Origin: a virus
Direction: 5' to 3' (one strand)
DNA: 64,000 nucleotides
IMG/VR virus record: IMGVR_UViG_3300045988_122383
Coordinates: 24,896 to 88,895 of that record
Both the position numbers and the translations under genes were made by a program. Every line of letters begins with the position of its first letter. Within the stretch, counting starts at the first letter, position 1. This document shows positions 1,901 through 63,895 of this stretch, in pieces. Below the pieces are notes generated by a model. It ran no database searches. It saw only the letters and a program-made list of their open reading frames with translations, and was not told the DNA's origin.

Positions 1901-2539
1901 TTACTTCACTACATATATTTTTCTGTGCTGTTGCACATTTATTGTTTCGGAATGTGTTGATTTGAACACGTCTACATGCATTCCTTTTACTTTGCCTCCG
2001 CAATCTTCTGCCACAAAGATTGTGTCACCGTATCCCTCAATCTTAACTCTTGTTCCATAAGGGATAATGTTTTTATCAACCGCAATCGTATGATATGGTC
2101 GAGCAAATTTATGCCCTGCATGATTCCAAGCAATCTTAGATCCATATCCTTCAGAACATTCATAACATGGACAATATGCCGTGATCAAAAATGTTCCAAG
2201 TGAACTCTTTTCAAGTTCTCGCTTTCGCTTCAGCCGCTGTCGTTTAATTCGCAATCGTTTCTTTCGAAGTTTTTCTAATCGAATCTGTCTTGCTTGCTCT
2301 TCATCAGCTTTCTTACATTTCTGATAATGCTCATGAACGTCTTTTAATTCAACGCTTTGACTGATTGGATTGTTTGAAATCACATTGCCTTGCTTATTTT
2401 CCGCAACAGTTGTCTCTGTTGATAAGGTTGAAGTCTCCACCGAGGGTCGCTCCTCTGCTTTAACTGTGTGAGTCATAAAGCCTGAACACATTGCTAAAAA
2501 ACTAAACGAAATAACTTTCATTAAAAATCTTTTTCTCAT
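1901..2539 (-). CDS. Secreted 3D-domain protein (MltA-like cell-wall-binding/lytic-transglycosylase fold, YuiC/YabE-like).
   Basis: Signal-peptide-like N-terminus (MRKRFLMKVISFSFLAMCSGF) followed by a 3D-domain segment ITAYCPCYECSEGYG...IPYGTRVKIEGYGDTIFVAEDCGG...HVDVF. The start was moved to the ATG at 2539, which has an AAAGGAG ribosome-binding site; the track's first ATG sits at the predicted transcription start. Confidence 0.7.
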   Translation of the reverse strand: MRKRFLMKVISFSFLAMCSGFMTHTVKAEERPSVETSTLSTETTVAENKQGNVISNNPISQSVELKDVHEHYQKCKKADEEQARQIRLEKLRKKRLRIKRQRLKRKRELEKSSLGTFLITAYCPCYECSEGYGSKIAWNHAGHKFARPYHTIAVDKNIIPYGTRVKIEGYGDTIFVAEDCGGKVKGMHVDVFKSTHSETINVQQHRKIYVVK

Positions 2540-2569: not shown

Positions 2570-2607
2570 ATCTTATCATACTTCTTGCACCCTGTCAATA
2601 GGTGCAA
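2570..2607 (-). promoter_or_regulatory. Sigma-70-like promoter (-35 TTGACA, 17-nt spacer, -10 TAAGAT) with the -35 embedded in a 23-bp palindrome TTGCACC-N9-GGTGCAA. This is copy 1 of a duplicated promoter-operator.
   Basis: Read directly from the sequence. A near-identical copy lies at 44170..44207. Both copies sit immediately upstream (on the minus strand) of a gene start. Confidence 0.5.
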
Positions 2608-2616
2608 AGAATAAAG

Positions 2617-4890
2617 TTAATTTTTTAAGCTTAACCAGGTGCGCCTCTTATTATGATTTGTCATAATACATCTCTTAAACGCTTCTGGCTCTGCAAGGAG
2701 TGCAAATCTTTTCTTAGCTCGTGTCAACATTGTATATAACATACAGTTATCAAGCAATTTGTAATGTGTATTGTCAATAATACCGATCACAGTTTGCGCA
2801 GCTGATCCTTGAAGTTTATGCGTGGTTAATGCATATGCTAATTGCAGTTGTCCTAACTGAGCGAAAGAATATTCAATCAGCTTTTCTTCAATATTTGCAT
2901 TCATAGACACCAAACATATTTCTTTTTCTTTGTCAATCTCTGTAATGTATCCAATATCACCATTGAATACATCTCGCTCGTAATCATTTGAAGTCTGTAA
3001 TACCTTATCTCCTAAATAGTATTTACGATCTTTGAATTCAACAAATGGTTTGTTACTACTAGCAAATAATTCTTTCTGTACTGCTTTGTTCAATTCATCT
3101 GTGCTGTTCGTACAATTACTTCTTCGTGGAGAAATAATCACAACATTGTCAAGCCCTTCCTCTTTGACAGATTTGATATACTGCTTTACTGCCATATTGA
3201 ACAATGATTCTCTATTCTTCCTGAACAAATAAAACATATCATTTAGTTCACCATGAACAATTTTTAATTGTGGGCTATCCAATGGATTAATCCCTCTGCG
3301 AATCTTTCTTGCATCCGTTAAAATACCAGATTTTTCTGCTTGTCTCATCGGTTTGGTAAGCTGTACACTATTTAAACCTTTCTTTTTCAACAGATCCGAG
3401 AAAATATTACCAAATCCAATCGGTGGCAACTGCATATAGTCACCACAAAAAATTAATCGTGTTCCTGGTCGAATTGCCAATAAAAAATTATAGAAAAGGC
3501 TCGCATTTGTCATGCTACTTTCATCCATGATTACTACATCAGCAGGTAATGGGTTATCTTGGTTATAACAAAAACTATCAATACCTTCTGCTACAAGTAA
3601 CCTATGAATAGTCCGTGAGTCTAAGCCTGTTGCTTCTTTAATTCTTTGGGCTGCTTTTGCAGATAAAGCACACGCAACAATGCTATTATTTCTTTTTTGG
3701 TAGCATTTAATAATTGGTTTCAGAATTGTTGTTTTACCAGTTCCAGCTTCTCCAGAAATAAACACAACTTGGCAATTTAATGCTTTGTTAACTCCTGTAA
3801 TTTGTTCTTCTGAAAACATAAACCCTTCTTCATCTTCAACTTCAGAAATCGTCTGACTAATCTCACTATCTGTTATTGGTTCGTAATCTGTTGTATTTCC
3901 AAATGAATATTTCTCCATATCTTTAATAAATTCGTAAATATCCATTTCAATTTTATAATACGATTTCAGACCAATTTTATCTCCAGATGTATATAAATAA
4001 TTTGGTAATTTTTTATCTGATTCTTCATCAAACCATTCGTCAAATATAGGTAAGCATTCAGACGCTGCATTACTAATATTGCTTCTTAAATTTTTGATAT
4101 ACACATATGTATGTCCATCATTATCACCAACTTGATGCAAGTCGTAGGAAATAAATGCGTTTAACCGTTGATTTGAGCATCGCAATTCTGGTTTTAATTT
4201 GAGCGCAATATCATCAACTCGTTTAAAGCCCATGCCCTTTACCCTAGTTAGTATATATGGATTTTGTTCAATCTGTTTTTTTAAAACACTTGGATTAGGT
4301 TCGGATTTCAATAATCTTTCAATCGTTGGTAACGTAACCCCATATGGTTGCAACATTACAACAATATCAGAAATCACATAGTTTTTAATAATTTTATCTC
4401 TAAGCTTCTTCCAAGTTTTATCTCCTAGTCCTTTGATTTCTGAATGGTCAATCATCTCTAACTGACCATTCATTACATCTTCAACAACATTAGGATATTT
4501 CGCAATTAACTGATCTGCGATCACTGCGTTCGTCTGTGTTTTTAAAAATACCTTTTGTGCTTCAAAAGTTTTAGGAACTTCAGCAACTATAGAAAGTGGT
4601 TTATATTGGTATTCATTGTATTTCTTAGAATATGTCATATTGGCTTTAACCTTATATTTCGTTCCTAAATACAACTCCTGCATATTACCAACCAATTTGC
4701 CACATTTATTCATTTTTTTATCGGATAAGTCATCAAAATCATTATTATTATATGGTTTACATTCTGGTAAATCTTCTGCTGTACAGAATGTGTAAATCCC
4801 AAATAAAGATTCTTCATTATAATAAATCTGATATAATGGGACAATCTCAAACTCATATTCTTTTGTACTATCCACCACTTTAGGCGACAA
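2617..4890 (-). CDS. RecD-like SF1 DNA helicase with an N-terminal domain of unknown function.
   Basis: Walker A VFISGEAGTGKTT and Walker B VIMDESSM, plus a C-terminal RecD/TraA-like motif LAYALTTHKLQGSAAQTV. The ORF is 757 aa. Confidence 0.75.
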   Translation of the reverse strand: MSPKVVDSTKEYEFEIVPLYQIYYNEESLFGIYTFCTAEDLPECKPYNNNDFDDLSDKKMNKCGKLVGNMQELYLGTKYKVKANMTYSKKYNEYQYKPLSIVAEVPKTFEAQKVFLKTQTNAVIADQLIAKYPNVVEDVMNGQLEMIDHSEIKGLGDKTWKKLRDKIIKNYVISDIVVMLQPYGVTLPTIERLLKSEPNPSVLKKQIEQNPYILTRVKGMGFKRVDDIALKLKPELRCSNQRLNAFISYDLHQVGDNDGHTYVYIKNLRSNISNAASECLPIFDEWFDEESDKKLPNYLYTSGDKIGLKSYYKIEMDIYEFIKDMEKYSFGNTTDYEPITDSEISQTISEVEDEEGFMFSEEQITGVNKALNCQVVFISGEAGTGKTTILKPIIKCYQKRNNSIVACALSAKAAQRIKEATGLDSRTIHRLLVAEGIDSFCYNQDNPLPADVVIMDESSMTNASLFYNFLLAIRPGTRLIFCGDYMQLPPIGFGNIFSDLLKKKGLNSVQLTKPMRQAEKSGILTDARKIRRGINPLDSPQLKIVHGELNDMFYLFRKNRESLFNMAVKQYIKSVKEEGLDNVVIISPRRSNCTNSTDELNKAVQKELFASSNKPFVEFKDRKYYLGDKVLQTSNDYERDVFNGDIGYITEIDKEKEICLVSMNANIEEKLIEYSFAQLGQLQLAYALTTHKLQGSAAQTVIGIIDNTHYKLLDNCMLYTMLTRAKKRFALLAEPEAFKRCIMTNHNKRRTWLSLKN

Positions 4891-39878: not shown

Positions 39879-41219
39879 TTATTTAATTGCTACGAAGATT
39901 TCATAACTCTTATTGTCATTGATATAAATTTCTTTGCCCTTGAGTTCTGGGAAATACTTCTTAGCAAGTTTCTTAAATTCCTTAATCTTTTGACCATTCT
40001 CGTCCTCATATGATTCTTTAAGTGGATCAAACATTAATTCTTCTTTCTTTACGACAAAGAATTTTGCATGAGGTAAACCTTTGCGTTCCTCTTCTCTGTG
40101 CTTATCATTCTCGATGATCTCTTCCAGTTTGCATAAATTTTCTGTCACTTCAATGCAGCTACTTGGATATTTCACATATTTGTTTGTCCAAAAATCAACT
40201 GCATCATGAGCACCTGCGTTACCAAACAGGTATTTTAATACACAAGTCTTGAAACCTTCTTCTCTGTTAAATCTGTCGAATCTGCTTGTATAAGCAACAG
40301 TTTCAGTACCACAGTTCCAAACCACCTTAACCATACCTCTGTAAAATTTAGCCTTAGTTACTGGTTTACCACCTCTTTCGAGTGGCTTACCATTACTATC
40401 TAAAACAGGTTCCCTAACTGTCATCTCTTTGTCTACATAAATAACTTTTTTGATTTTGTCTTTTAATTTTTCTGTATTCATATCTTTCTCCTCTTCGTTT
40501 CCTGTAAGTTCACTCATGATTTCATCCAATTTTTCTGACGCAAATGTTAAAGTTGCACTCATTTCACCATTCCAATCAATATGTGTTGGTGCATAAGGAC
40601 TCAACCCACGGTCGTCATGTATCATCCATGATTTCCCTGTGGTTGAAAGCTCACCAGCCTCATTCTTTATTGGTTCTGACGTTGCAGTAATTGGTTTTTG
40701 TTGATAGTGTGACAGAGCAGACACTCTTCTTTCTGAAAGTGACGGTAGGGTTAATGTATTAACCTTTATTTTGTCGGCTGAAATCGTACCTGTCTTAATC
40801 TCAATATCTTCATTCATTGTTTCTTTTCTTGTAATTCTTCTGATTATAATAGTTGCCTCTGTCGACTTTATACTTTGTAGTCTATATCGCAGTTTTTCAT
40901 ACCAATATGGAACAATAATATTTACTTTACCATCTCTATACACATCCATTTCAATCGACTCAGCATCATCAAATGTAATATCGTGCCAAGGTTGCGTTGT
41001 TTTAGCAACTTTGGTATGTGGCTTTATCATATAAGTTTCGGTTATTGGAAGATCTCCTTTGAATTCTACTGTTTCAATTTTAAACATCGCATATACATCA
41101 TTATTCTCTACCTCAACAACATCTCCTACATTAAATGGCGCCATACCATCTCGTGGATTATATTTAACTTCTTTACCATTCATACAGCGTACCCAAACGC
41201 CCGTTTTATTTTCATCCAT
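39879..41219 (-). CDS. Large hypothetical protein (446 aa).
   Basis: Long ORF with no recognizable motif. Confidence 0.5.
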   Translation of the reverse strand: MDENKTGVWVRCMNGKEVKYNPRDGMAPFNVGDVVEVENNDVYAMFKIETVEFKGDLPITETYMIKPHTKVAKTTQPWHDITFDDAESIEMDVYRDGKVNIIVPYWYEKLRYRLQSIKSTEATIIIRRITRKETMNEDIEIKTGTISADKIKVNTLTLPSLSERRVSALSHYQQKPITATSEPIKNEAGELSTTGKSWMIHDDRGLSPYAPTHIDWNGEMSATLTFASEKLDEIMSELTGNEEEKDMNTEKLKDKIKKVIYVDKEMTVREPVLDSNGKPLERGGKPVTKAKFYRGMVKVVWNCGTETVAYTSRFDRFNREEGFKTCVLKYLFGNAGAHDAVDFWTNKYVKYPSSCIEVTENLCKLEEIIENDKHREEERKGLPHAKFFVVKKEELMFDPLKESYEDENGQKIKEFKKLAKKYFPELKGKEIYINDNKSYEIFVAIK

Positions 41220-41414
41220 ATAATTCTCCTCTCTAATGTATCAATTTGTTACTTTACATTTTCACGGTATTGATATTCATCGACACTCAATACCTGCGTA
41301 CCCATCTCTAGTACCAAGACGGTACTGGAATTTATCTCCTTTCTAACATAATATTTACATTTTAATTTTGCACAAATGCCTGTGCGAGTCATTACATATA
41401 ATAAGGAAGAAACT

Positions 41415-42065
41415 CTACCCAATTATATTCTGGATAAGCTCATAATACTTTGTCCTGCCGACATACGACTTATGTTCTGCATCTTTTAATTCTTTCTTCA
41501 AAGTACATATATCTTTCTGATTATCCATGCAATTCTGCATCACTTCTATGTATCGAATACAATTCTTGATCTTTCTATGCAATTCTTGTAAGGTTTTAAG
41601 ATACCCAACAATCACTGCACGTTTCGCAGCATCAATCTTTTTAAACTCAATCGCATGAAGAATATCACTTCTGGCAGAATCGGCATATGATAATGCCTGT
41701 TCTAATTCAAACTTCTTTTCTCCTAATTGATCTGAGTCATATGCTAGAAGTCCTACTATAGCTCTTTCCTCAGTCTCTATATTGTCGATCAATGTATTAT
41801 CACATTCCCAATCCATAAAGCAATTTCCATTACCTTTACGCATTATTTCACTAGATTCCATAGGTTTTCCAACTTTACCTAGCTCAATTTCTCTGGCATG
41901 AAATCCGTCTTTCATCCACGTATATTTATGCTTCAAACCTAAAATGTGCTTTGCTTGCTTAGAGGTAAATTGAGTAGCTTCAGACTTACGATTATCACGA
42001 ACGTATTTATTTCTTGCATGATCTCTTTTCACATAGAACTCTCCATTCGTAATTATGTATTTCAT
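41415..42065 (-). CDS. Hypothetical protein.
   Basis: ORF of 216 aa. Confidence 0.45.
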   Translation of the reverse strand: MKYIITNGEFYVKRDHARNKYVRDNRKSEATQFTSKQAKHILGLKHKYTWMKDGFHAREIELGKVGKPMESSEIMRKGNGNCFMDWECDNTLIDNIETEERAIVGLLAYDSDQLGEKKFELEQALSYADSARSDILHAIEFKKIDAAKRAVIVGYLKTLQELHRKIKNCIRYIEVMQNCMDNQKDICTLKKELKDAEHKSYVGRTKYYELIQNIIG

Positions 42066-42111
42066 ACATCACTCCTGTATTTAATTGTAGTTTTTTGGAA
42101 AAATTTTCATG

Positions 42112-42140
42112 TTGACGAACATGTTTAGAATTGTTATAAT
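42112..42140 (+). promoter_or_regulatory. Near-consensus sigma-70 promoter on the plus strand: TTGACG, 17-nt spacer, TG-extended TATAAT.
   Basis: Read from the sequence. It lies in the intergenic region between two minus-strand genes and points away from any plus-strand ORF. Confidence 0.45.
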
Positions 42141-42146
42141 GATTTT

Positions 42147-42243
42147 AAGGATAATAATATCCTTATCTATTAAACAATTCTAAATATCAAATTCGATTTT
42201 CTATCGTGCTGCCAACACGGTAGATTCAAAAAATCTTTTTTTG
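42147..42243 (+). ncRNA. Candidate small RNA of about 95 nt transcribed from the orphan plus-strand promoter.
   Basis: The predicted start is followed by hairpin AAGGATA-ATAA-TATCCTT and hairpin TCTATCGTG-ctgccaa-CACGGTAGA, then ...AAAAAATCTTTTTTT. It contains no ATG. This is an inference only. Confidence 0.3.
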
Positions 42244-42258
42244 TTATCTATGATTTGT

Positions 42259-42624
42259 TTAGTTGAAATTTTTAGTTTGTGTGAAAGTAGAAGTTTTACC
42301 AAAGACTTCTGCTTTCTTTTTTATTGTCTGTATTTTTATTCCAACATTGTATCTCTCTTTGTATGTAAATTGCAGGCATTTGATTATGTCAAATATGTCG
42401 TCCTGCCTAATATGAGAGAACAAATTCTCATCTTGAATAAATTCGATCCAATGATATGAAAGATCTTTATCTTTGCCATAGATCTTCATCTTTCTATCAT
42501 CTGCTCGAATCTTATATTCACTCAGAAACCACGATGACATTTCTGATGAGTGTAAATCAAGTACATCAATATGCATTTGATTTGATTGATTCGCTACCAA
42601 TGTTTTTAATATTTGATTGTCCAT
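42259..42624 (-). CDS. Hypothetical protein.
   Basis: ORF of 121 aa; last gene of the operon that begins with the MazF-like gene. Confidence 0.45.
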   Translation of the reverse strand: MDNQILKTLVANQSNQMHIDVLDLHSSEMSSWFLSEYKIRADDRKMKIYGKDKDLSYHWIEFIQDENLFSHIRQDDIFDIIKCLQFTYKERYNVGIKIQTIKKKAEVFGKTSTFTQTKNFN

Positions 42625-42638
42625 ACATATACCTTCCT

Positions 42639-43667
42639 TTATTCTGTCATAATTTGATGTACACGATAATTCTTATAGTCCTCATCTTTATATAAATAAC
42701 CAATAGTTTTACCAATTACAGTTTGACGATCACTAAATTGTTTCTTTTTTAATCTATATGATATATAATAATTATAATAAAATTCAATTGCAATTTCACT
42801 AAATTGACGTGCGATTATAGATCGTGCGATTCCTTCTTTTGATTTAATATAATATAAATCTGCAATTGCCTTGATATCCATTTTAGATTTTAAATATTGT
42901 ATAAAACCAGAATTAATAACATCAATGGTTGTCAATTTCTCATAAGATAAAGTGTTACCAGTTAATTCTAATTGAGACTGCACATTGTTATATATCCTCT
43001 TTTGCTCTGCTTGATATTCTTCTATATTATTACATTTTTTTCGTGGTATTAATACAAAATCATCATATATATTCGTATCTCCCATTTTCAATTTATATTC
43101 ATTCAATGTCTCGATAAAATCTTTGGAGACTGGTTTCCCAAAAATTGTTAAATCATTTTGATTAATATCTGAGAATTTTAGATTTCTTAACTCCTTTCCA
43201 TTTATCCCATTATATAAACTCACAATATGAAATCTAGTATTCAATTTGGTATCGGCTGATGCATTGCACGACATCAGATTCGAAATAAACGCATTTATTT
43301 TATCTGGTGTAACATAATTAACATTAACTCTATTTGAAAAATATATATCAACTGCTAATTGCAAGTTTATAAATTTATCATTAACAAATGGATTATATTT
43401 AATGTAATTTTGTTCATATGCATAAGTATATAGTTTAACGAGCTGGTCATATCTTTTTTTAATAGAATTCATACTTTTGGTTTTTTTACCTCTAGTATCT
43501 GATAATATAGCCTCTTGGATTGTACCTGGTGCATACGTTAACCCAGATTCATTGTCGTCCGCAATATCAGAATCTAACAACCAATTCCATGTTGGGCGAC
43601 GTGATTCTGATACGTGAGAATCTATATAATTTTGTATCAATTCTTTATTATTCATAATATTCTCCAT
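42639..43667 (-). CDS. Hypothetical protein.
   Basis: ORF of 342 aa. Confidence 0.45.
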   Translation of the reverse strand: MENIMNNKELIQNYIDSHVSESRRPTWNWLLDSDIADDNESGLTYAPGTIQEAILSDTRGKKTKSMNSIKKRYDQLVKLYTYAYEQNYIKYNPFVNDKFINLQLAVDIYFSNRVNVNYVTPDKINAFISNLMSCNASADTKLNTRFHIVSLYNGINGKELRNLKFSDINQNDLTIFGKPVSKDFIETLNEYKLKMGDTNIYDDFVLIPRKKCNNIEEYQAEQKRIYNNVQSQLELTGNTLSYEKLTTIDVINSGFIQYLKSKMDIKAIADLYYIKSKEGIARSIIARQFSEIAIEFYYNYYISYRLKKKQFSDRQTVIGKTIGYLYKDEDYKNYRVHQIMTE

Positions 43668-43669
43668 TT

Positions 43670-44119
43670 CTAGGATGCCATTGCATTCATGTACGATAAC
43701 ATGCCGTTTTGTATTAAAATGCCATGTCCTATTTTTAACATTAAAGATAGATCAGATATTCTTCCCCAATACTCTAAAAGATTATTCTTTGGAATTGTTC
43801 TTCCTTGCTCTAAATACACCTGTGATACCATTTTTAATCCATTACTGGTATTTGGATAAATGGTTACATGTGTCGGTATCCAGTTCCTTAATTTTTTTGT
43901 AATTGGATACACGTTAATCTCTGTGCTCGTATTATTACAAATATTATTAGAATATACGATGACTGGTCTTTTCCCATGCAAGATATGACTACCTTCAATT
44001 TTCGGCAAATCTGCAAAATATATTCCCCAAACTTGAGGATTTTGATATTTGCCATATACATATTCTTTTCTTTTTCTGTTATCGTTTCCTTTTCTTTCTT
44101 TGTTAGTATATCCGTTCAT
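43670..44119 (-). CDS. MazF/PemK/EndoA-family endoribonuclease (toxin-like mRNA interferase).
   Basis: VWGIYFADLPKIEGSHILHGKRPVIVYSNN...VYPITKKLRNWIPTHVTI...SQVYLEQGRTIPKNNL aligns block-for-block with Bacillus EndoA (VYFADLSPVVGSEQGGVRPVLV...KLPTHVEI...LEQIRTIDK). The start was moved to ATG 44119, which has a GAGGGA ribosome-binding site. There is no upstream antitoxin ORF. Confidence 0.7.
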   Translation of the reverse strand: MNGYTNKERKGNDNRKRKEYVYGKYQNPQVWGIYFADLPKIEGSHILHGKRPVIVYSNNICNNTSTEINVYPITKKLRNWIPTHVTIYPNTSNGLKMVSQVYLEQGRTIPKNNLLEYWGRISDLSLMLKIGHGILIQNGMLSYMNAMAS

Positions 44120-44169
44120 TTTTACGTCCCTCAACTTTCCCCAGTTGCATTTTTTGTTTTCATGAATTA

Positions 44170-44207
44170 AATATACCATACTTTTTGCACCCTGTCAATA
44201 GGTGCAA
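44170..44207 (-). promoter_or_regulatory. Promoter-operator copy 2: -35 TTGACA, 17-nt spacer, -10 TATATT, with the -35 inside the same TTGCACC-N9-GGTGCAA palindrome.
   Basis: About 60 bp are near-identical to 2570..2628, including an A/T-rich block upstream of the -35. Confidence 0.5.
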
Positions 44208-44279
44208 GAAAGAAAGTTAATTTTTGTTGTGAACAAAGAATCTCTACATTTCTTATTATAATGCTACCATAGAACAAAA

Positions 44280-44600
44280 TCAAGATATTTTTCGAACAGA
44301 TGTTCTCTTTTTGTTCGAACACTTTACTTTGTGCTTACTTGGAAGGGGGAAATACTGTCTAACTTTATGAGGCTTATCCAGTTTCCATTTCTTTTCTTCA
44401 AAATCATAGTCACAAAAATCAAGCACTTCGTCCACACATCCATCATTATATTTGTAATCCACAATAACAGGATATGTTTTATACCTCATGTAACGTGATG
44501 CATTATCTGGTTTTAATGGTGGAATCTCTGCTGAAATCCACATAAGATTCTGGTTTGCTTTCTTTTCTTCCTTATTTTGTCTAATCGTATTTATCTTCAT
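44280..44600 (-). CDS. Hypothetical protein.
   Basis: ORF of 106 aa. Confidence 0.45.
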   Translation of the reverse strand: MKINTIRQNKEEKKANQNLMWISAEIPPLKPDNASRYMRYKTYPVIVDYKYNDGCVDEVLDFCDYDFEEKKWKLDKPHKVRQYFPLPSKHKVKCSNKKRTSVRKIS

Positions 44601-44611
44601 ACAAAATTCTC

Positions 44612-45358
44612 CTATAAAATCCTAATAATTTGTTCGTAAATTGCAATCGCATTATCTTCTGGAAAGTTCTGGTTCACATGCATATGCCCAAAGAACCATT
44701 TTTGATAAATCACTTTGTCTTTTATTTGCTGTAAATAATCCGTTAACTTGTCAGATTTGTACACTCCTGATCCTTGATCCATTTGTCTTAAAACAGATGT
44801 GTATGGACTATGTGTAATAACGTAATCTACTTGGAAGTCATTTTTCTCTAAATTCATCACACCTTCTGCCATCTCTTTATCAGATGGCAATTCTTCTTTC
44901 CACCAGCTCACATGATTAATCCTAAACATTTTGTCATAATCTCTGTACCATTCATTAATTCTTGGATCGTCTGGCTCTAAAATTCCATCTTGCACATCAT
45001 GGGAACTGGCACCGCCAAATGTAAAGAATTTCTTTCCTTGAATTTCAAACACCTGTCCACGCATAAGATGAAATACAGAGTCTTTGATCTTGTGAATCTT
45101 TCCGCCACACCATTTCTCTACAGGATATTGATATAAGCGGTCGTAATTTTCATGATTCCCACATACAAACAATGTAGTAAATGGCTTGTTATCTAACCAT
45201 TCCAGATTATATCGTTCTTCTTTTGTGTCATGCCACAGTCCAAAATCTCCGCAGATAATCACATAATCATCTTTGGTTAACTCAACTCCCTCTGGGAAAG
45301 AACGACTGTTTAATCGAGTCATCCAATCCCCATGTGTATCTCCTGTTACAAATATCAT
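44612..45358 (-). CDS. Calcineurin-like metallophosphoesterase.
   Basis: Motifs GDTHGD, GDFG and GNHE. Confidence 0.7.
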   Translation of the reverse strand: MIFVTGDTHGDWMTRLNSRSFPEGVELTKDDYVIICGDFGLWHDTKEERYNLEWLDNKPFTTLFVCGNHENYDRLYQYPVEKWCGGKIHKIKDSVFHLMRGQVFEIQGKKFFTFGGASSHDVQDGILEPDDPRINEWYRDYDKMFRINHVSWWKEELPSDKEMAEGVMNLEKNDFQVDYVITHSPYTSVLRQMDQGSGVYKSDKLTDYLQQIKDKVIYQKWFFGHMHVNQNFPEDNAIAIYEQIIRIL

Positions 45359-46305
45359 ACAATTACTCCTTCCAATAACTCTTCTAATGCCTGCATATTA
45401 TCTTCATGTACTCTATCATCTTGATCTGCATCATCTTTGCCAGTCTTATAAGCAAACTTGATAATCTCCATAACTCTATCATAACTCACATTAACAACAT
45501 TTTCCTTCAATCCGTTAAAAGCCCCACTGATAATTTCCTTGTATGTCTGCGCAATATCATCAAACAATACATGAGTTTCTTCCTCTGTGATTGTTGCATA
45601 CAGAAATGTCATTGCAGGGCTACTATGATTCAATAATCTCATAAGTGTATACAATACGTTCTGATCATCTTTATGATCGACAAGTGTCCAATACACAAAG
45701 TTCTTTCGTAATGTATGCGTACCAATATTGTCCTCAATTCCAACTGCTTTAGCACCTTTTTTAACAAAATCCAAAGCATTTGCTTCAGTCATGTGTCCTA
45801 ATCCAGACTTACATGTTCCAAAAACATAATCATCCATTGGCACTTCGCCATCAATCTTGACATCATATTTAGTTCCTGCAACAGCTTCAAAGAAAATATC
45901 CACTGCTTCAGTTACCAAATCGTTAAAGTATACCGTTCTGAATTTCTTTGTTTTCTTTTCCTGCTTACGAGTCTTATCGTCTAATAAATCGCCCCATTTG
46001 AGTCTGACGATATCAGAGATACGATATGCTGTATTGTTTCCAACTGCAACCAAAAGATTGTTTCTGGCAGCTACATATCGTTTGTACTCTGTGTACGATT
46101 TATCAATCTGGTCTCTAAAATATGCATTAAAGGCTGCAAATTTTTCTTTGTTCTTAATTGGATACACTAAAGATGATACGCCTTTTTGTTTATTAGATCG
46201 AGTCCATTTAGGATTTCCGTCCTTACGTCTTTTGATCTTTGCTTCAGGTTCTTCTGCGTTATTATTGTTTGCTGTTTTAATAACTTCAAATTGTGTTGCT
46301 GCCAT
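45355..46305 (-). CDS. Tyrosine site-specific recombinase (phage integrase/Xer family).
   Basis: Catalytic Arg (AYRISDIVRLKW), His-x-x-Arg (GTHTLRKNF) and a C-terminal LLNHSSPAMTFLY containing the catalytic Tyr. Confidence 0.7.
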   Translation of the reverse strand: MAATQFEVIKTANNNNAEEPEAKIKRRKDGNPKWTRSNKQKGVSSLVYPIKNKEKFAAFNAYFRDQIDKSYTEYKRYVAARNNLLVAVGNNTAYRISDIVRLKWGDLLDDKTRKQEKKTKKFRTVYFNDLVTEAVDIFFEAVAGTKYDVKIDGEVPMDDYVFGTCKSGLGHMTEANALDFVKKGAKAVGIEDNIGTHTLRKNFVYWTLVDHKDDQNVLYTLMRLLNHSSPAMTFLYATITEEETHVLFDDIAQTYKEIISGAFNGLKENVVNVSYDRVMEIIKFAYKTGKDDADQDDRVHEDNMQALEELLEGVIV

Positions 46306-46331
46306 GATAATCTCTCCTCTCTTAATTATTC

Positions 46332-46664
46332 TTACACTCTCTTAATTACTTTTTCTATTTCCTGTGCCAACAGAAAATCATTTATTGCATTTTCATCGTC
46401 AGTAATCAATGTATATTTCCATACTGGGGAACCATGATATGATATATCTTCAACCTTAAATAATGCTCTTTTACCAGTGTTATTTTCTCTATGATCTGAC
46501 TCCAATAACTCTGTATGAATTCCCCAACTATCATATAGATGTCCATCGTATAGTATTTGAGCCGCAGCTATTAATATATTATATTTACTCACATCAACCT
46601 CTGTATTCACTGTTCCGTATAATTTCATTGTTCCAATCTCCTCTCTAATTATTGCACTGTTCAC
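46332..46664 (-). CDS. Hypothetical protein.
   Basis: ORF of 110 aa. Confidence 0.45.
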   Translation of the reverse strand: MNSAIIREEIGTMKLYGTVNTEVDVSKYNILIAAAQILYDGHLYDSWGIHTELLESDHRENNTGKRALFKVEDISYHGSPVWKYTLITDDENAINDFLLAQEIEKVIKRV

Positions 46665-46730
46665 GTACTTCTGGTCTAATTTCTACTTCGATTAATTCCA
46701 TAATTCTTACTCCTATTCTCTAAATTTAGG

Positions 46731-46757
46731 CAAAATAAAAAGAAGCCATAAGCTTCT
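46731..46757 (-). terminator. Rho-independent terminator.
   Basis: Hairpin GAAGCTTATGGCTTC followed by TTTTTATTTTG on the minus strand. Confidence 0.55.
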
Positions 46758-46781
46758 CAATCTCATTCTGTTATTCAATTT

Positions 46782-47246
46782 CTACAATGGTCTAATAATA
46801 TCAGGATTCATGATCAGAATACTATCACAATCCCAACCGTAAAGCTCATAATATAACTCATAATCACCTTTGGATAAATTAAGCTTAATTGCATCAACTC
46901 CATCTTCGACCATCTTCTCAAAATCTGGCACAACGCCCATTGTATCAAATAAATATTCTGGGAGATATCCCGATAGATCTTGCGTTGGAACCTGCTTTAA
47001 ATCGGCTTTCGCTGTCCATTCAACAATATTTGCCGAATCATCCAATGTAAATTTAAAGTTTTTGTCTAGTTTATCAATTCTAAAATCATTATCAATACAC
47101 CATTTCTCCCACGGCTGATCCGCCTTTATATCCGATGCCCATAAACCTCTAAATGGTTTGTTAATCATGTTTCTGTTCACAATTGACATAAACAACTCTT
47201 TCTCAAACTTATCACTTCCGTAGTGAATATAAATATTTTCTGACAT
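46782..47246 (-). CDS. Hypothetical protein.
   Basis: ORF of 154 aa. Confidence 0.45.
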   Translation of the reverse strand: MSENIYIHYGSDKFEKELFMSIVNRNMINKPFRGLWASDIKADQPWEKWCIDNDFRIDKLDKNFKFTLDDSANIVEWTAKADLKQVPTQDLSGYLPEYLFDTMGVVPDFEKMVEDGVDAIKLNLSKGDYELYYELYGWDCDSILIMNPDIIRPL

Positions 47247-63180: not shown

Positions 63181-63739
63181 TAGATCCGTTCAATGTTAAG
63201 TTGTTAACTTCACATATAACAAATATATGAAGGTTTGCCAGTCGTACCCTTTACCCGTTATCCTATGATTGCGGTTTATTCCCTACTCTGCCACACGGCG
63301 ATTACTCATCACGTTTACACCTTTTTATGGTGCTTCTATGTATACCCTGGAAGCTTTACCCTCCGTTATCTAGGGTATACAATCCTATCATGATAAAGGA
63401 CTGAAATCATTCAATTTTTCGCCGTTCGTGGGAGATTGTCAAAAGAATTATTGACAATAAAGAATAATATCTGATATACTTTAGTTGCGAAGTAAAGGTA
63501 TATCTTATATCTTTAAAGGCTTGCTGGAATCATCACGACTTTAGCAAGTCTTTTTTCTTTGCCTAAATAACCTATATCATCATAGGTAATGTGTTAAATT
63601 GTATAATTGTTTATTTTTTATCATCTCCTTTTATAAAGCTTAATTTACAAGCTGTAAGTTAATTGAGATTTTAAAACTCTGCGGATCAATCAAGATCGTT
63701 TGTTTTACTACTCTTTTAACTTGTCTTTATTATATCATG

Positions 63740-63895
63740 ACTAGTATTGTTATGTCAATACTTTTTTCAATTTTTTTGATTTACTTTTTTGAGTAAATCG
63801 TGATATAATAATATCAATCGGATTGGACTTGTATGTCTTATCCTTTTGACAGTTATAATTATACAATACTAGTATTGCTATGTCAATACTTTTTT
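63740..63895. promoter_or_regulatory. Two copies (63740..63767 and 63868..63895) of a 28-bp operator-like repeat ACTAGTATTG(T/C)TATGTCAATACTTTTTT, each holding the inverted repeat GTATTG-N6-CAATAC. Copy 2 overlaps a TTGACA-N17-TAGTAT promoter upstream of the rightward edge gene.
   Basis: Read from the sequence. An extended -10 promoter (TGATATAAT) lies between the two copies. Confidence 0.4.

Follow-up and report, generated by a model that had tools for sequence, protein, structure and literature searches.

MazF toxins are the textbook partners of small MazE antitoxins that are encoded upstream of them. In HigBA, MqsRA and HicAB the toxin gene comes first and the second gene encodes a DNA-binding repressor that acts through promoter palindromes, while in the imm regions of lambdoid phages a regulator gene and several operators are swapped between relatives as one specificity cassette. 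Phage T4 encodes an RNase with a RelE/YoeB-like toxin fold, RegB, for which no antitoxin is known; an early promoter drives the expression of this enzyme, which inactivates mRNAs as the infection proceeds (PMC3014915). Here we describe a MazF gene that lies in a 64-kb stretch of the IMG/VR virus record IMGVR_UViG_3300045988_122383 (the window; all positions are counted within it) and that comes from a large gut phage. Its promoter, the gene itself and the following gene, which encodes a protein of 338 amino acids (aa), are exchanged together between related phages, whose contigs are labelled L004, L013, L017 and so on. We give roughly an even chance to the reading, drawn from sequence comparison, that MazF is the first gene of a mobile two-gene cassette with the 338-aa protein as its partner, i.e. 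that the two would form a non-canonical, toxin-first MazF-regulator pair.

The exchange is visible at the nucleotide level. When the window was aligned with the L017 and L063 contigs, identity was 92-99% on the flanks and fell to 49-81% exactly from ~44300, at the promoter, to ~42700, at the end of the 338-aa gene. The neighbouring 106-aa and 121-aa genes lie outside this divergent block, and the 121-aa protein is 92% identical to that of L017, where MazF is 70% identical. Pairwise protein identities show that the unit moves between backbones. In L013 and L016 the integrases are 75% identical, while MazF is 94% and the 338-aa protein 99% identical and the promoter and its repeat are the same. 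The converse is found when the window is compared with L017 or L014: the integrase is 92-95% identical, MazF 68-70% and the 338-aa protein 56-66%, and the repeat arms are different. Thus, the promoter repeat, MazF and the 338-aa gene are swapped between phage backbones as one sharply bounded unit.

The inverted repeat within the promoter follows the protein that is encoded behind it. Seven alleles of the 338-aa protein were distinguished among the lineages, and each goes with its own set of repeat arms, namely (sets 1 to 7) TTGCACC/GGTGCAA, which is the window type, AACTAAAC/GTTTAGTT, TTATCT/AGATAA, TAAAAA/TTTTTA, TATTGaCACT/AGTGgCAATA, CTTTA.../...TAAAG and ATTACCAATCCA/TGGATTGGTAAT. Joint divergence of a gene pair and its exchange together with an operator is the behaviour that would be expected of a cognate toxin-partner module or of an immunity module.

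The promoter carrying the repeat, P1, is of the sigma-70 type and ends 50 nucleotides (nt) before the ATG at 44119; its TTGAC and TGnTAnnnT elements are kept in all lineages. The 23-nt inverted repeat around its -35 hexamer, TTGCACCTATTGACAGGGTGCAA, occurs exactly twice in the window, where no occurrence is expected by chance. The other copy lies ~41.6 kb away, in the promoter of a gene whose product matches L-Ala-D-Glu peptidase families and is of the secreted type, and the two promoter copies are alike over ~52 nt (Table 1). Inverted repeats of at least 6 base pairs around TTGAC are uncommon in the window, being present at 9 of 139 sites. The initial annotation had described MazF as the lead gene behind a promoter-operator ~50 nt upstream that is shared with another gene, a description that stands on both counts. 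Its proposal that MazF is under dedicated transcriptional control also gains support, in that a change of cassette allele is accompanied by a change of arms both in front of MazF and in front of the distant peptidase gene. A putative second promoter, P2, was found ~85 nt upstream of P1, and its TATAAT hexamer and a short repeat, AAGAA...TTCTT (to 44236), are kept in all lineages. Transcripts from P2 would hold the operator repeat as an RNA hairpin.

The coupling between cassette and distant promoter could be followed in IMG/VR, where 52 loci encode the peptidase at 94-100% identity. In all five IMG/VR genomes with an L017-type cassette the arms of the peptidase promoter are of the L017 type as well, and the peptidase behind them is 95-98% identical to that of the window; the genomes with a window-type cassette carry window-type arms there in every locus examined. 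The window-type arms hardly vary (2 of ~50 MazF loci show single-base changes in them), while in these genomes the spacer bases, the -10 hexamer and the upstream flanks vary independently at the two sites, which argues against simple homogenisation by gene conversion. A third TTGCACC...GGTGCAA promoter copy is present in window-type genomes, outside the window (e.g. in L256 and at L300 9341-9363). It precedes a 132-aa open reading frame (ORF) and a 287-aa protein with weak similarity to replication initiators or regulators, and it brings the putative regulon to at least three promoters. Because the arms switch with the cassette allele at both promoters, the simplest explanation is that they are operator half-sites read by a cassette-encoded protein. 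Of the two cassette products, the 338-aa protein is most plausibly the DNA binder.

The assignment of the first cassette gene to the MazF/EndoA family, made in the initial annotation from short motifs, was borne out by profile and structure matches, and the motifs quoted there align. The mechanical ORF (43670..44179, minus strand) encodes 169 aa, of which residues 51-143 match the Pfam hidden Markov model PemK_toxin (PF02452) at 57.2 bits, above the cut-off of 23.1; a match was also obtained to phrog_1936, 'MazF-like growth inhibitor' (3.7e-15). The true start is predicted to be the ATG at 44119, giving a protein of 149 aa that begins with MNGYT, since the ATG at 44179 falls within the promoter, the one at 44150 is, in the window, shifted out of the MNGYT frame by one extra A (in the relatives it is in frame), the N-terminus MNGYT is common to all relatives and the Shine-Dalgarno sequence GAGGGA lies ahead of it. 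Solved MazF, PemK and EndoA structures match residues 32-144 of this protein at E = 3e-10 to 2e-8, and its R51 and T74 align to Arg25 and Thr48 of 4hke and 7bxy. Arg25 and Thr48 are key catalytic residues of Bacillus MazF and are essential by mutagenesis (PMC7354611). Homologues of the window protein range from 42 to 94% identity; all 12 examined have Arg at the position of R51, and 11 have Thr at that of T74, with Ser in the twelfth. The ratio of nonsynonymous to synonymous substitution rates (dN/dS) against six relatives is 0.06-0.16 where computable, indicating purifying selection. Because the catalytic residues are kept and dN/dS is this low, the gene is taken to be a maintained one whose product is probably an active MazF-family RNase. 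The one feature of the protein that had been misplaced is its extension, described earlier as ~30 aa at the C-terminus. The MazF chains used for alignment are 116-120 aa long, the alignment reaches residue 144 of 149, and the extra ~31 residues are N-terminal. They comprise a basic stretch rich in K, R and N followed by the motif Y-x-Y-G-[KR]-[YF]-x-x-P-x-V-W, and the N-terminal segment has an isoelectric point (pI) of 9.9. The extension is kept in the relatives and is unique to this MazF clade.

Gene order around MazF is stable. A core arrangement was found in 12 of the 12 contexts examined, in which MazF is 56-94% identical to that of the window: a tyrosine integrase (316-329 aa), an optional metallophosphatase, an optional 106-aa gene, MazF, a protein of 338-347 aa and a protein of 106-128 aa. 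The 338-aa gene begins 7-22 nt past the MazF stop codon in the relatives and 14 nt past it in the window (counted from 43655), and in the most distant relative (L073) it overlaps MazF by 23 nt. The adjacency of the two genes holds in at least eight lineages. The 338-aa protein evolves fast, and its family is confined to this phage clade. An indexed search returned 7 relatives, and a profile search of 1.84 billion representative proteins returned only 2 full-length representatives, from this clade only.

What kind of protein the 338-aa product may be is suggested by a weak integrase signal. Residues 6-214 match phrog_1 (4e-10), and Phage_int_SAM_5 is matched by 4 of 8 family members at E ~0.003, below the cut-off. 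A Foldseek search with the structural model (predicted local distance difference test score, pLDDT, of 56) retrieved 2kob, which we take to be an integrase N-terminal domain, at probability 0.96 (E = 1.1) and a Tn1549 integrase at 0.44, with E-values of 0.4-1.1 that are non-significant. No member of the family matches Pfam Phage_integrase above threshold (one of eight reaches E = 0.02), and the family profile found nothing among PDB sequences. In the family alignment, by our own reading, the Arg of box I is not kept and D..N stands in the place of HxxR. Tentatively, we regard the 338-aa protein as an integrase-like DNA-binding protein without recombinase chemistry. The tyrosine integrase of the window (45355-46305, minus strand) keeps R...HxxR...H...Y and is among the most conserved genes of the region (73-95% identity, dN/dS 0.03-0.14); its catalytic domain starts from ~residue 75, without a normal N-terminal core-binding domain.

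Searches for an antitoxin of a known kind were negative. Pfam detected no MazE, AbrB, RHH, PemI or Phd family member among the 55 small minus-strand ORFs of the window, including a 51-aa ORF that spans the promoter, and PADLOC and NCBIfam returned nothing relevant for MazF and its neighbours. The upstream 106-aa ORF (44280..44600) was rejected as an antitoxin: it is basic (pI 9.6), matches no family of Pfam, PHROGs, PADLOC or NCBIfam, does not occur in the L004-L007 lineage, falls outside the block that is exchanged and is set off from MazF by one or two promoters. A ToxI-like type III system, with an RNA antitoxin as in ToxIN, was likewise excluded, there being no tandem repeats in 41000-47000 and no Rfam match. 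Since the search turned up no AbrB/RHH antitoxin upstream, the locus does not qualify as a canonical MazEF/PemIK type II toxin-antitoxin (TA) operon. The initial annotation was therefore correct that no MazE/PemI-like gene precedes MazF and that the next gene upstream, beyond the promoter, encodes an unrelated basic protein; no canonical antitoxin had been overlooked there. Its term 'antitoxin-less' holds in so far as no canonical antitoxin is present, but MazF is not an orphan, being tightly coupled to the downstream 338-aa gene in every lineage, a link that the initial annotation did not pick up. The alternative it offered, an inhibitor encoded elsewhere, needs a similar adjustment: an inhibitor or regulator is more likely to be encoded directly downstream (42639..43655), by one of the two ORFs that it had named for co-expression.

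Table 1. Positions of the features of the MazF locus and of the second repeat-bearing promoter within the 64-kb window
Feature	Position	Strand	Remarks
Promoter P1: TTGACA 44198-44193, 17 nt with TGn, TATATT 44175-44170	44170..44198	-	11/12 consensus plus TG extension
Inverted repeat TTGCACC-N9-GGTGCAA around the -35 hexamer, candidate allele-specific operator, copy 2	44185..44207	-	exact second copy at 2585-2607
Inverted-repeat promoter copy 1, before the peptidase gene 1901..2539	2585..2607	-	exact 23-mer match
Possible second promoter P2: TTGATT, 17 nt, TATAAT	44255..44283	-	10/12 consensus; overlaps the stop codon of the 106-aa gene
MazF/PemK-family endoribonuclease gene	43670..44119	-	149 aa, stop codon included; Pfam PF02452, phrog_1936, PDB alignments
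Shine-Dalgarno sequence GAGGGA	44127..44132	-	7 nt before ATG 44119; kept in relatives
Gene of the 338-aa candidate partner	42639..43655	-	likely start MNNKE at 43655, GGAG Shine-Dalgarno sequence; mechanical ORF start 43667
121-aa third operon gene, outside the exchanged cassette	42259..42624	-	present in all lineages
Small-RNA candidate: own promoter, two hairpins, T-run terminator	42112..42245	+	convergent, directly after the MazF operon

The small-RNA candidate that faces the operon (Table 1) was present in 22 of 22 sequence variants examined. Its promoter (TTGACG, 17 nt, TATAAT; 11/12 consensus plus TG) is invariant and has a short repeat of its own over the -35 hexamer. Compensatory changes are seen at 5 of the 13 pairs of its stems in 12 sequences, and it has no Rfam match. 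The candidate is antisense to the leader of the next gene, which precedes, or in some relatives is, a Bro-N/ANT anti-repressor gene, an arrangement that recalls sar of P22 and c4 of P1. A role as an antisense regulator of MazF translation was considered and rejected, the predicted duplex of -18.6 kcal/mol being unremarkable against a mean of -20.5 kcal/mol over all start regions.

According to the toxin-first pair model, the 338-aa protein would bind the repeat as its operator, autoregulate the MazF operon and co-regulate at least two other promoters. The same protein, possibly together with the 121-aa protein, would also restrain MazF, giving a TA-like or immunity-like module. Active MazF would cleave host RNA, and perhaps phage RNA, for example to help the phage take over the host, shut out rival phages or be retained; a role in host shut-off or inter-phage conflict, as first proposed from the sequence, is plausible. 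A more far-reaching version, which we consider speculative and rather improbable, is that a catalytically dead tyrosine-recombinase-like protein serves both as the allele-specific repressor of a small regulon of at least three promoters and as the MazF antidote. Closely related phages that differ in their cassette allele would then lack immunity to one another, so that one could kill or exclude the other. Such a cassette would amount to an 'immunity region with a built-in toxin' and, among large gut phages, to a mobile specificity module of a new class.

Several observations weigh against the pair model. The gap between the perfect arms varies with the allele, from 9 to 19 nt, a spread that a single DNA-binding family would not usually show. 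Only two cassette alleles showed co-variation at the distant promoter, and IMG/VR scans for the L014-type and L004-type repeats returned nothing; a 14-nt repeat pattern was too unspecific for such a scan. The integrase-like assignment of the 338-aa protein rests on weak matches, and hhalign found no relation between its family and the neighbouring true integrase family. The AlphaFold2 models are unreliable, with a pLDDT of 56 for the 338-aa protein and 48 for the 121-aa protein. Neither protein is acidic (pI 8.8 and 7.8, respectively) and they resemble no known antitoxin. Finally, many other phages carry MazF-like genes without a recognisable antitoxin, and a phage MazF may simply need none.

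This last point leads to an alternative that we regard as possible, though on the unlikely side: a truly antitoxin-less phage RNase that is expressed from an early, operator-controlled promoter and degrades host or early phage mRNA, much in the manner of T4 RegB (PMC3014915). Control of MazF would be purely transcriptional and temporal, and the 338-aa protein would be a transcription factor only, making no contact with MazF. Consistent with this are the lack of any antitoxin family among the small ORFs of the window, the strong host-type promoter within the early and replication region, the MazF-like genes of other phages just mentioned, the RegB precedent itself and the distribution of the gene, since none of 185,579 bacterial and archaeal species genomes (GTDB) yielded a relative of the window MazF and no prophage copy was detected. 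A lone RNase would leave unexplained, however, why the MazF gene itself diverges in step with the 338-aa gene and moves with it as a sharply delimited block, and why the two genes lie so close together, or overlap, for translation in all lineages. It would also leave phage mRNAs exposed if its specificity were similar to that of Bacillus MazF, because the motif UACAU is not avoided on the sense strand (116 observed versus 100 expected).

Two further explanations appear to us quite improbable, and to a similar degree. In one of them the MazF-like protein would be a sequence-specific factor that processes or regulates phage transcripts, such as read-through transcripts or the small RNA, rather than a toxin that arrests growth, and its basic N-terminus would add RNA binding. 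The conservation of this clade-unique extension and the presence of a conserved, structured small-RNA gene directly after the operon would fit such a role, as would the narrow targets, e.g. tRNA or rRNA, that enzymes of the MazF family are reported to have in some cases (PMC4756823); on the other hand, the catalytic core is that of classical toxins, pairing between the small RNA and MazF mRNA is unremarkable and there is no direct evidence for any substrate. The other explanation holds that the inverted repeat is a cis-acting hairpin, in RNA or DNA, or belongs to a duplicated promoter that is kept uniform by gene conversion, with the cassette being a recombination hotspot that is uninformative about a MazF partner. 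Here one can point to the variation of arm length and loop size among the alleles, to the ~45-52 nt, reaching beyond the arms, that are shared between the copies within a genome, and to the position of both window copies just past the end of an upstream gene. Independent hairpins would nevertheless not be expected to share their arms at two or three loci that are ~41.6 kb or more apart, nor to switch together, and the hairpin is not followed by a U-tract. Gene conversion, for its part, is at odds with arms that stay fixed in window-type genomes while spacer and flanks differ between the copies.

The wider setting of the cassette is that of a large phage. No near DNA match to the window was found among 50,697 sequenced phages. 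The same MazF gene is present at 54 loci in IMG/VR; their contigs measure 82-169 kb and stem almost entirely from two or three large metagenome data sets. All credible genes of the window lie on the minus strand and its G+C content is 33.7%. Family matches identify it as the early, replication and nucleotide-metabolism part of the genome, with genes for a DnaD-like loader, a DnaB-like helicase, a primase, a RecJ-like exonuclease, a DNA polymerase and an exonuclease V/Dda-like helicase, along with nicotinamide phosphoribosyltransferase, ribose-phosphate pyrophosphokinase and Bro-N/Ant-type anti-repressors. The nicotinamide phosphoribosyltransferase and ribose-phosphate pyrophosphokinase genes (33905-36207, minus strand) form an NAD salvage pair, which is cargo of the anti-defence type, and two small proteins of the window match the Thoeris anti-defence Tad2-like domain at 1.3e-11. 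An element at 30238-30376 (minus strand; 139 nt) matches the Rfam tRNA model at 43.8 bits, has no ARAGORN call and may be an intron-containing or atypical tRNA. On the sense strand of the whole window, CCAGG and CCTGG are strongly depleted (6 and 5 observed versus 25 and 14 expected), as is GGACC (0 observed versus 8 expected); these are the sole clear depletions, a pattern that suggests avoidance of CCWGG- and GGWCC-type restriction sites. Near the end of the window, two promoters with 12/12 consensus (63729-63886, minus strand) share a palindrome, CAATACTAGTATTG, between their -35 and -10 hexamers, the second copy of which is imperfect (CAATACTAGTCATG). A divergent plus-strand promoter is situated nearby (63451-63480), and together these elements resemble an early control region of a separate kind, with an operator type of its own. 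In the related phages L004 (982-1491) and L016 (1732-2241), a canonical Phd/YefM-YoeB pair is encoded a few kb upstream of the MazF cassette, so that in related phages this early region can harbour classical TA modules as well. One relative, L013, has an IS605 OrfB/TnpB (Cas12f-like) gene (3498-4610) between the integrase and metallophosphatase genes.

Phage genomes are full of unexplained 'MazF-like growth inhibitor' annotations, and this locus offers a concrete and testable case. A search of a paper library returned no functional study of a phage-encoded MazF and no experimental study of the phage proteins annotated in this way. At this locus, control over a conserved phage MazF seems to lie with a protein of DNA-binding type that is unrelated and much larger, and the pair is swapped together with its operators. 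If the toxin-first pair is real, the range of proteins that partner MazF would be wider than is known, related phages would have a route by which to diversify regulatory and toxic specificity, and several natural allele-operator pairs would be at hand for specificity studies.

How the cassette relates to the described systems can now be set out. The phage 'MazF-like growth inhibitor' proteins of PHROG 1936 and 35650, with examples in Lactobacillus phage ATCC 8014-B2, Blautia/Faecalimonas NatCom phages and Enterocloster phage PMBT24, resemble it in having a PemK/MazF domain without an annotated MazE; their genes sit in other surroundings, e.g. behind a helicase gene and a 162-aa gene or within a tail/lysis module, and the proteins, which are only 26-44% identical, have neither the N-terminal extension nor a 338-aa partner. 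T4 RegB differs in that its fold is RelE/YoeB-like and not that of MazF, it has no sequence relation to the protein described here, it needs ribosomal protein S1 and no co-evolving partner cassette is known for it. HigBA, MqsRA and HicAB are like the locus in organisation only, since their toxins belong to other families and their antitoxins are small helix-turn-helix (HTH), zinc-finger or RHH proteins. The likeness to the lambdoid imm regions is also one of organisation only: the cassette here includes a MazF RNase and its putative regulator is not an HTH repressor. With MazEF/PemIK, as represented by Bacillus EndoA-EndoAI (PDB 4ME7, 4HKE and 7BXY), the locus shares the toxin fold and family, the catalytic Arg and Thr, an inverted repeat over the operon promoter and a linked, co-evolving second gene. 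It departs from them in lacking an AbrB/RHH antitoxin, in placing the toxin first, in the weakly integrase-like 338-aa protein that takes the place of the partner, in the basic 31-aa N-terminal extension of its MazF and in an operator that is also present at unrelated promoters.

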